In this document: in pieces, positions 42,001 through 45,000 of the stretch | How positions within the stretch are numbered: the stretch's first letter is position 1 | How the letters are laid out: each line of letters opens with the position of its first letter | NCBI RefSeq assembly: GCF_057098645.1 | Contig: NZ_CM169472.1 | Length of the DNA stretch: 64,000 bases | Direction: 5' to 3' (one strand) | Position numbers: made by a program

Positions 42001-45000
42001 TCGGTGGCCCAACCGGCGAGCACAACAGCCCGCGCTCAAAGAGCTTCTTTGATGGTGTGAAGAAGTTTTTTGACGACCTGACCCGCTAACCTCCCCAAAA
42101 GCCTGCCCGTAGGCAGGCCTGGGTAAAAATAGGGTGCGTTGAAGATATGCGAGCACCTGTAAAGTGGCGGGGATCACTCCCCGCCGTTGCTCTTACTCGG
42201 ATTCGTAAGCCGTGAAAACAGCAACCTCCGTCTGGCCAGTTCGGATGTGAACCTCACAGAGGTCTTTTCTCGTTACCAGCGCCGCCACTACGGCGGTGAT
42301 ACAGATGACGATCAGGGCGACAATCATCGCCTTATGCTGCTTCATTGCTCTCTTCTCCTTGACCTTACGGTCAGTAAGAGGCACTCTACATGTGTTCAGC
42401 ATATAGGGGGCCTCGGGTTGATAGTAAAATATCACTCGGGGCTTTTCTCTATCTGCCGTTCAGCTAATGCTTGAGACAGATAGCCTCAAGCACCCGCCGC
42501 TATTATATCGCTCTCTTTAACCCATTCTTTTATCGATTCTAATCCGGAAGACGCCTCGCATTTTTATGGCGTAATTTTTTAATGATTTAATTATTTAACT
42601 TTAATTTATCTCTTCATCGCAATTATTGACGACAAGCTGGATTATTTTTGAAATATTGGCCTAACAAACATCGCCGACTGACAACAAATTAATTATTACT
42701 TTTCCTAATTAATCCCTCAGAAATCCTCACCTTAAGCTATGATTATCAGGGCTTAGGGTCACTCGTGAACGCTTACAGCCGTCAAAAACGCATCTCACCG
42801 CTGATGGCGCAAATTCTTCAATGGCTCGTAAAAAACGAATTATTCCTACACTATAATCTGATTTTAACGATGATTCGTGCGGGGTAAAATAGTAAAAACG
42901 ATCTATTCACCTGAAAGAGAAATAAAAAGTGAAACATCTGCATCGATTCTTTAGCAGTGATGCCTCGGGAGGCATTATTCTTATCATTGCCGCTATCCTG
43001 GCGATGATGATGGCCAACAGCGGCGCAACCAGTGGATGGTATCACGACTTTCTGGAGACGCCGGTTCAGCTCCGGGTTGGTTCACTCGAAATCAACAAAA
43101 ACATGCTGTTATGGATAAATGACGCGCTGATGGCGGTATTTTTCCTGTTAGTCGGTCTGGAAGTTAAACGTGAACTGATGCAAGGATCGCTAGCCAGCTT
43201 ACGCCAGGCCGCATTTCCAGTTATCGCCGCTATTGGTGGGATGATTGTGCCGGCATTACTCTATCTGGCCTTTAACTATGCCGATCCGATTACCCGCGAA
43301 GGGTGGGCGATCCCGGCGGCTACTGACATTGCCTTTGCACTTGGTGTGCTGGCGCTATTGGGAAGTCGTGTTCCGTTAGCGCTGAAGATCTTTTTGATGG
43401 CTCTGGCTATTATCGACGATCTTGGGGCCATCATTATCATCGCATTGTTCTACACTAATGACTTATCGATGGCCTCTCTTGGCGTCGCGGCTGTAGCAAT
43501 TGCGGTACTCGCGGTATTGAATCTGTGTGGTGTACGCCGCACGGGCGTCTATATTCTGGTTGGCGTAGTGTTGTGGACTGCAGTGTTGAAATCGGGGGTT
43601 CACGCAACCCTGGCGGGGGTAATTGTCGGCTTCTTTATTCCTTTGAAAGAGAAGCATGGGCGTTCTCCAGCGAAGCGACTGGAGCATGTGTTGCACCCGT
43701 GGGTGGCGTATCTGATTTTACCACTGTTTGCATTTGCTAATGCTGGCGTTTCACTGCAAGGCGTCACGCTGGATGGCTTGACCTCCATTCTGCCATTGGG
43801 GATCATCGCTGGCTTGCTGATTGGCAAACCGCTGGGGATTAGTCTGTTCTGCTGGTTGGCGCTGCGTTTGAAACTGGCGCATCTGCCTGAGGGAACGACT
43901 TATCAGCAAATTATGGCTGTGGGGATCCTGTGCGGTATCGGTTTTACTATGTCTATCTTTATTGCCAGCCTGGCCTTTGGTAGCGTAGATCCAGAACTGA
44001 TTAACTGGGCGAAACTCGGCATCCTGGTCGGTTCTATCTCTTCGGCGGTAATTGGATACAGCTGGTTACGCGTTCGTTTGCGTCCATCAGTTTGACAGGA
44101 CGGTTTACCGGGGAGCCATAAACGGCTCCCTTTTCATTGTTATCAGGGAGAGAAATGAGCATGTCTCATATCAATTACAACCACTTGTATTACTTCTGGC
44201 ATGTTTATAAAGAAGGTTCTGTGGTTGGCGCAGCGGAGGCGCTTTATTTAACACCACAAACCATTACCGGACAGATTCGGGCGCTGGAAGAGCGCCTGCA
44301 AGGCAAATTATTTAAGCGCAAGGGACGTGGTCTCGAGCCCAGCGAGCTGGGGGAGCTGGTCTATCGCTATGCCGATAAAATGTTCACCTTGAGCCAGGAA
44401 ATGCTGGATATCGTGAACTATCGCAAAGAATCCAATTTATTGTTTGACGTTGGCGTGGCTGATGCACTTTCCAAACGTCTGGTCAGTAGCGTGCTGAATG
44501 CTGCAGTAGTAGAAGGCGAGCCAATTCATCTTCGCTGCTTCGAATCCACCCACGAAATGCTGCTGGAGCAATTAAGCCAGCATAAACTGGATATGATCAT
44601 TTCCGACTGTCCGATAGATTCTACGCAGCAGGAAGGCCTGTTCTCCGTGAGAATTGGCGAATGTGGCGTGAGTTTCTGGTGTACAAATCCACCGCCGGAA
44701 AAACCGTTCCCAGCTTGTCTGGAAGAACGGCGGCTTTTGATTCCTGGGCGACGTTCAATGTTAGGGCGCAAATTGCTTAACTGGTTTAACTCCCAGGGAT
44801 TAAACGTAGAAATCCTTGGCGAGTTTGATGATGCCGCTTTGATGAAAGCTTTTGGTGCGATGCACAATGCAATCTTCGTTGCCCCAACGCTTTATGCATA
44901 TGACTTTTATGCCGATAAAACTGTCGTAGAAATTGGTCGCGTCGAGAATGTGATGGAAGAGTACCATGCTATTTTTGCTGAGCGGATGATTCAGCACCCG

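Follow-up and report, generated by a model that had tools for sequence, protein, structure and literature searches.

Background

IS186 is an insertion sequence (IS) whose target motif is GGGG(N6/N7)CCCC and which has inserted in both orientations in laboratory lines; the hot spots named in that work are fimA and menC, and its main text mentions neither hokC nor mokC (PMC5009759). Escherichia coli K-12 carries a copy, IS186A, downstream of hokC (gef), an insertion presumed to break up the fold-back inhibition sequence of hokC (PMC3562002). The surroundings of nhaAR, close by, are variable, with hokC, sulfatase, fimbrial/adhesin and type III effector modules that have undergone multiple gains and losses (PMC4182557).

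Here we compare with K-12 a 64-kilobase (kb) stretch of E. coli DNA (the window; 64,000 nucleotides of contig NZ_CM169472.1, RefSeq assembly GCF_057098645.1) that covers the thr-dnaKJ-nhaAR-rpsT region. The alignments indicate that its empty IS186 site downstream of hokC is the ancestral state, and that IS1A of K-12, located between nhaR and rpsT, stands where 7.76 kb with a fimbrial operon and the effector gene espX1, both kept in the window, have been deleted.

The dnaJ-mokC interval and the empty IS186 site

The E. coli K-12 MG1655 genome with its annotation served as reference and was compared with the window by using the Basic Local Alignment Search Tool (BLAST), which gave colinear blocks. 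The annotation of MG1655 in this region runs dnaJ, IS186A (15387-16731), mokC/hokC/sokC, nhaA, nhaR, IS1A (19796-20563) and rpsT. The corresponding landmarks of the window are as follows.

42089: end of dnaJ
42169..42182, no strand: unoccupied IS186 target GGGGATCACTCCCC, of the form GGGG(N6)CCCC, placed by alignment and motif scan
42929-44095: nhaA
45060: end of nhaR

Window and K-12 keep a constant offset over a colinear stretch that starts before thrL and ends 92 bases beyond dnaJ, where the offset drops by 1,349 bases. K-12 4633236..15390 corresponds to window 18377..42181 in the first block (offset 26793 falling to 26791), and K-12 16728..19795 to window 42170..45235 in the second (offset 25442). 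The position of the break is that of the annotated IS186A, and the target in the window is single and unoccupied, in agreement with a first-pass annotation of the window that had described a constant offset from thrL to dnaJ with a drop of about 1.35 kb at hokC, and no IS186 between dnaJ and mokC. No part of IS186 or of IS1 was matched by BLAST anywhere in the 64-kb window.

The first block shares its last 12 bases with the start of the second (42170-42181, GGGATCACTCCC). They are found on both sides of IS186A in K-12 and once in the window, so that alignment of 42090-42930 with K-12 yields the unduplicated target that the first-pass annotation had expected there. The K-12 junctions are laid out as ...GGCGGGGATCACTCC[C-IS186-G]GGATCACTCCCCGCC...; GGATCACTCC stands on each side of the element both in K-12 and in strain 720632, and the duplication measures 10-12 bases given the ambiguous end bases. 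The motif lies inside a hairpin, GGCGGGGATCACTCCCCGCC (42166-42185), and fits the N6 form of the published IS186 target exactly. No GGGG(N6/N7)CCCC match other than GGGGATCACTCCCC occurs in the 64 kb. With about 0.7 chance matches expected, the motif carries no significance by itself; the evidence lies in its position at the K-12 junction. In the lineage of K-12, IS186 would have entered the GGGG(N6)CCCC hairpin 12-22 bases downstream of hokC, duplicating 10-12 bases, and the window would retain the ancestral uninterrupted site. Locus and target are the same as those of K-12 IS186A; the window is the uninterrupted form, and it holds nothing new beyond this allele state.

Occupancy of the IS186 site across E. 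coli

The state of the site was determined with queries of 119-121 bases each. Here and below, genome counts refer to 5,426 complete E. coli genomes, a genome being counted if at least 80% of the query was covered in one place.

Empty site: 3,814 genomes (about 70%)
IS186 in the K-12 orientation: 816 genomes
IS186 in the opposite orientation: 940 genomes

Among the matches listed, empty sites include those of O157:H7 and O25b:H4-ST131 strains as well as those of all the closest relatives of the window, and occupied sites belong, among others, to BLR(DE3) and to isolates from humans and dogs. Both junctions of strain 720632, read directly, consist of the K-12 target and duplication with the element inverted; an IS cannot flip relative to its own flank by internal recombination, and the site must therefore have been hit at least twice. 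Insertion in both orientations, described for laboratory lines, is found across natural genomes too. The IS186 site downstream of hokC is a recurrently filled hot spot and not a K-12 marker, and its occupancy is a poor guide to lineage.

Outside E. coli, window 40900-42581, which includes the empty site, has a colinear counterpart of 94.4% identity in E. albertii NBRC 107761, uninterrupted at the target. From the emptiness of the site in E. albertii and in most E. coli genomes we infer that empty is the ancestral state, as the first-pass annotation had stated. Turnover is conceivable at a site filled so repeatedly, and the lineage of the window might formerly have carried IS186 here and lost it by precise excision, leaving a secondary empty site. 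Precise loss of an IS together with one duplicated copy is rare. The excision reading is very unlikely, as the window site bears no footprint and the empty state is shared by the majority of genomes, by all the closest relatives listed and by E. albertii.

Two further observations concern the site. The clinical isolate E. coli 720632 (L091, 2545-3928) has the K-12 IS1A deletion junctions, yet carries IS186 inverted at the hokC site, and the IS186 and IS1A markers are therefore not inherited as a single K-12 haplotype. A scan of species-representative genomes with the 20-base hairpin returned 85 loci. Matches by chance in GC-rich organisms account for nearly all of them, and the only relevant ones are those of E. 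albertii (colinear) and Kluyvera georgiana (a hok homologue elsewhere). The K. georgiana locus (L070, 2992-3346) is hok-like, 67% identical to window 42162-42503, and has an identical 20-base hairpin with the IS186 motif. The E. coli representative genome is not among the 85 loci, as would be expected if that genome is K-12, in which IS186 splits the hairpin.

The hokC/sokC locus

Around the target, the following features were placed.

42193..42402, minus strand: mokC; protein identical to that of K-12, annotated mokC in relatives
42193-42345, minus strand: hokC, nested in mokC; protein identical to that of K-12
42394..42452, plus strand: sokC antisense RNA, placed by its K-12 position; 2 bases differ from K-12
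42343..42495, minus strand: leader of the hokC messenger RNA (mRNA), starting with GGGUGCUUGAGG at 42495; full-model match to Rfam RF01794 'sok' at 122 bits (gathering score 59)
42132..42144, minus strand: predicted 3' fold-back partner CUUCAACGCACCC of the mRNA 5' end, from a ViennaRNA minimum-free-energy fold

The small Hok open reading frame (ORF), the overlapping mok ORF and the antisense sok region together are the parts of a hok/sok type I toxin-antitoxin system. In the predicted fold of the minus-strand RNA from 42497 to 42096, positions 42484-42495 pair with 42132-42144 through 12 pairs, which fits the arrangement of the hok family, with a 5' activator and a 3' fold-back element, and agrees with the disruption of the hokC fold-back sequence proposed for the K-12 insertion (PMC3562002). 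The predicted partner lies beyond the IS186 target; it is contiguous with hokC in the window and separated from hokC in K-12. Past it, the minus strand reads as a hairpin followed by a run of U. The consensus terminator scan flagged neither of the hairpins between dnaJ and hokC and found no promoter for hokC, so that the ends assigned to the transcript derive from the Rfam match together with the predicted fold. Judged by this fold and by published hok work, the hokC mRNA of the window could run on to the 3' fold-back element and the hairpin with its U run, and the hokC/sokC locus is probably intact.

Roughly one complete E. coli genome in three has the hairpin downstream of hokC occupied, with the element either way round and the same duplication. 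The hairpin might be no mere passive target of IS186: one might suppose that insertions which time and again cut hokC off from its 3' fold-back element are selected, through toxin silencing or changed regulation. We regard this as a doubtful proposal; if it were true, a functioning chromosomal hokC system would be a property of the empty-site strains, this one included.

The nhaR-rpsT interval and IS1A of K-12

The absence of IS1 after nhaR had been taken in the first-pass annotation as a second ancestral empty site. There is indeed no IS1, but neither is there an empty target: the place is taken by 7,761 bases of genes, and the description as ancestral and empty holds for the IS186 site only. 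The interval proposed for finding the IS1 target (45061-45100) is simply colinear with K-12, and the break follows at 45235.

45236..52996, no strand: segment of 7,761 bases, absent from K-12 and replaced there by IS1A; right breakpoint uncertain by 2 bases

Homology to K-12 ends at window 45235, 175 bases past the nhaR stop, and restarts at 52997, so that the offset gains about 6,990 bases across nhaR-rpsT, where a simple IS1 insertion would have lowered it by 768 bases. Such an insertion would have an 8-9 base duplication and contiguous flanks, whereas the 9 bases on either side of K-12 IS1A (GTAATTGCT and TACCTCAAT) are not a duplication, and the flanks lie 7,761 bases apart in the window. 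Since the flanks are not duplicated, there is no unduplicated IS1 target to find. At the nhaR side, K-12 keeps only the last 138 bases (45098-45235) of an adhesin-like gene, directly abutting the IS1 end, and this remnant identifies K-12 as the derived, deleted form. The junctions thus indicate that IS1A of K-12 marks a 7.76-kb deletion of a fimbrial operon and espX1.

IS1 would have removed these 7.76 kb in the K-12 lineage, either by adjacent deletion or by recombination between two IS1 copies, and would have been left without target duplication beside the last 138 bases of the adhesin-like gene, while the window would have kept the cluster. The K-12 element resembles IS1-associated adjacent deletions, being likewise without flanking duplication and with a truncated gene at one end; the route (intramolecular transposition or two-IS1 recombination) cannot be read from the K-12 sequence. 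K-12-type IS1A junctions were found in 558 genomes on the nhaR side and in 543 on the rpsT side. For a query spanning the segment (window 45000-53100), at least 80% is covered in 1,180 of the 5,426 genomes, and other genomes cover only 54%.

That minority, and the repeated gain and loss of modules flanking nhaAR (PMC4182557), would be in keeping with a different history, in which the lineage of the window acquired the fimbrial and espX1 segment as an island at the place where K-12 has IS1, and K-12 lost nothing. An island would leave no fragment behind, however, and the homology of K-12 extends 138 bases into the adhesin-like gene and stops at the IS1 end; K-12-like genomes are annotated with a 'fimbrial family protein' under the IS1A flank, and the missing target duplication is a mark of deletion or recombination. 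We rejected a lineage-specific island on the strength of the gene remnant retained in K-12, and consider it highly improbable. That both K-12 elements are simple insertions, and the window a case of two unoccupied targets, is true of IS186 and accords with the lack of any IS1 in the window, but for IS1A, which lacks a duplication and replaces 7,761 bases including a truncated gene whose 3' end K-12 keeps, the junction alignment refutes it and leaves this reading next to no probability.

Two separate IS events in the K-12 lineage (IS186A and the IS1A deletion), together with one in the lineage of the window itself (an IS3 insertion, below), very probably explain the local differences, and no evidence contradicts the structural conclusions. 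Three points qualify this explanation. The three classes of IS186 site sum to 5,570, about 2.7% more than the 5,426 genomes, so that some genomes must have been scored more than once, perhaps because of paralogous or plasmid hok loci, and the shares given are rough. Function of hokC here we infer from the predicted fold and from published hok work. Further back in time, the fimbrial and espX1 modules could themselves be acquisitions; with multiple module gains and losses on record (PMC4182557), 'ancestral' denotes the immediate ancestor of the K-12 allele and not necessarily the root of E. coli. The comparison corrects the shortcut by which an IS present in K-12 and absent from another strain is equated with an empty site: the nhaR-rpsT difference is a K-12 deletion.

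The retained segment and the IS3 insertion

The genes of the 7.76-kb stretch, all on the minus strand, and the IS within it are as follows.

45098..46057, minus strand: tip-adhesin-like gene, 319 amino acids; 'fimbrial family protein' or 'hypothetical protein' in relatives
46070..48520, minus strand: fimbrial usher gene, a pseudogene with a TGG-to-TGA stop at 47873-47875 (codon 216)
48533..50470 (parts 48533-49048 and 50307-50470), minus strand: fimbrial chaperone gene, split by IS3
49049..50306, minus strand: IS3, 1,258 bases, 99.9-100% identical to annotated IS3 copies
49079-49945: orfB of IS3 (rve integrase, Pfam)
49942-50250: orfA of IS3 (HTH_Tnp_1, Pfam)
50520..51053, minus strand: fimbrial major-subunit gene
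51355..52776, minus strand: espX1, type III secretion effector, a pentapeptide-repeat protein of 473 amino acids

The Pfam domains Fimbrial, PapD_N, PapD_C, PapC_N, Usher and PapC_C were all found, as in a chaperone-usher operon; the 319-amino-acid adhesin-like protein had no Pfam match. The order of hokC, nhaAR, fimbrial genes and espX1 is that annotated in O157:H7 strain 2159. Compared with the modules described around nhaAR (PMC4182557), the window lacks a sulfatase module in the hokC-nhaA interval, and it adds the IS3 in the chaperone gene, a state unseen in complete genomes.

The IS3, overlooked in the first-pass annotation though it lies inside the nhaR-rpsT interval, has the length of the element, an orfA with a helix-turn-helix and an orfB with rve, terminal inverted repeats beginning TGATC, and a short duplication (TCCC on both sides); its ends and flanks were read directly. 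The best complete-genome match to 45000-53100 is strain C325, at 99.9% identity over 85% of the query, which is everything except the IS3. From this it follows that none of the 5,426 complete E. coli genomes has IS3 at 49049-50306, and the insertion could serve as a typing marker for the isolate. Five bases from the end of IS3, 8 bases of the chaperone gene (CGATCCAT) are missing by comparison with C325 and O157:H7; this deletion (window 50307-50320) lies between short CAT repeats.

The usher stop is common to the window and C325, in which the gene is annotated with an 'internal stop', and the usher is intact in O157:H7 strain 2159. With both usher and chaperone genes disrupted, the retained operon is probably non-functional; its decay in the window comprises the premature usher stop, the strain-specific IS3 in the chaperone gene and the 8-base deletion. 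In O157:H7 strain 2159, the adhesin-like gene is frameshifted.

Strain relationships and other differences

Identity of the window to K-12 is 98.2-99.2%; strain C325 and O145:H28 strains match it at 99.9%. On these values, the source strain is close to the O145:H28 / C325 lineage, with O145:H28-type strains as its nearest relatives. The first-pass annotation had considered a non-K-12 lineage confirmed by the missing IS elements; the lineage is non-K-12, but it is the identity values that show this, absence of IS186 being the majority state and its presence not specific to K-12. All the differences seen here are ordinary strain variation of a kind already described, and the biology is known.

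Against C325, the 7.5 kb leading up to IS3 (41502-49048) contain three substitutions and a single gap, a 2-base deletion at window 42528 in the hokC-nhaA intergenic region, where C325 has an extra TG. Elsewhere in the window, about 290 bases (4036-4322) stand in place of the 1.33-kb kinase-toxin gene hipH (yjjJ) of K-12 (K-12 4621771-4623102). Between nadR and ettA there is a 4.1-kb segment (9903-14023) that K-12 does not have, annotated in relatives as encoding an aldo/keto reductase, a LysR-type regulator, an SDR oxidoreductase, SRPBCC and DUF1471 proteins; O145 strain RM9872 matches a 4.5-kb query across this segment (window 9700-14200) at 100% identity, and at least 80% of the query is covered in 482 complete genomes.
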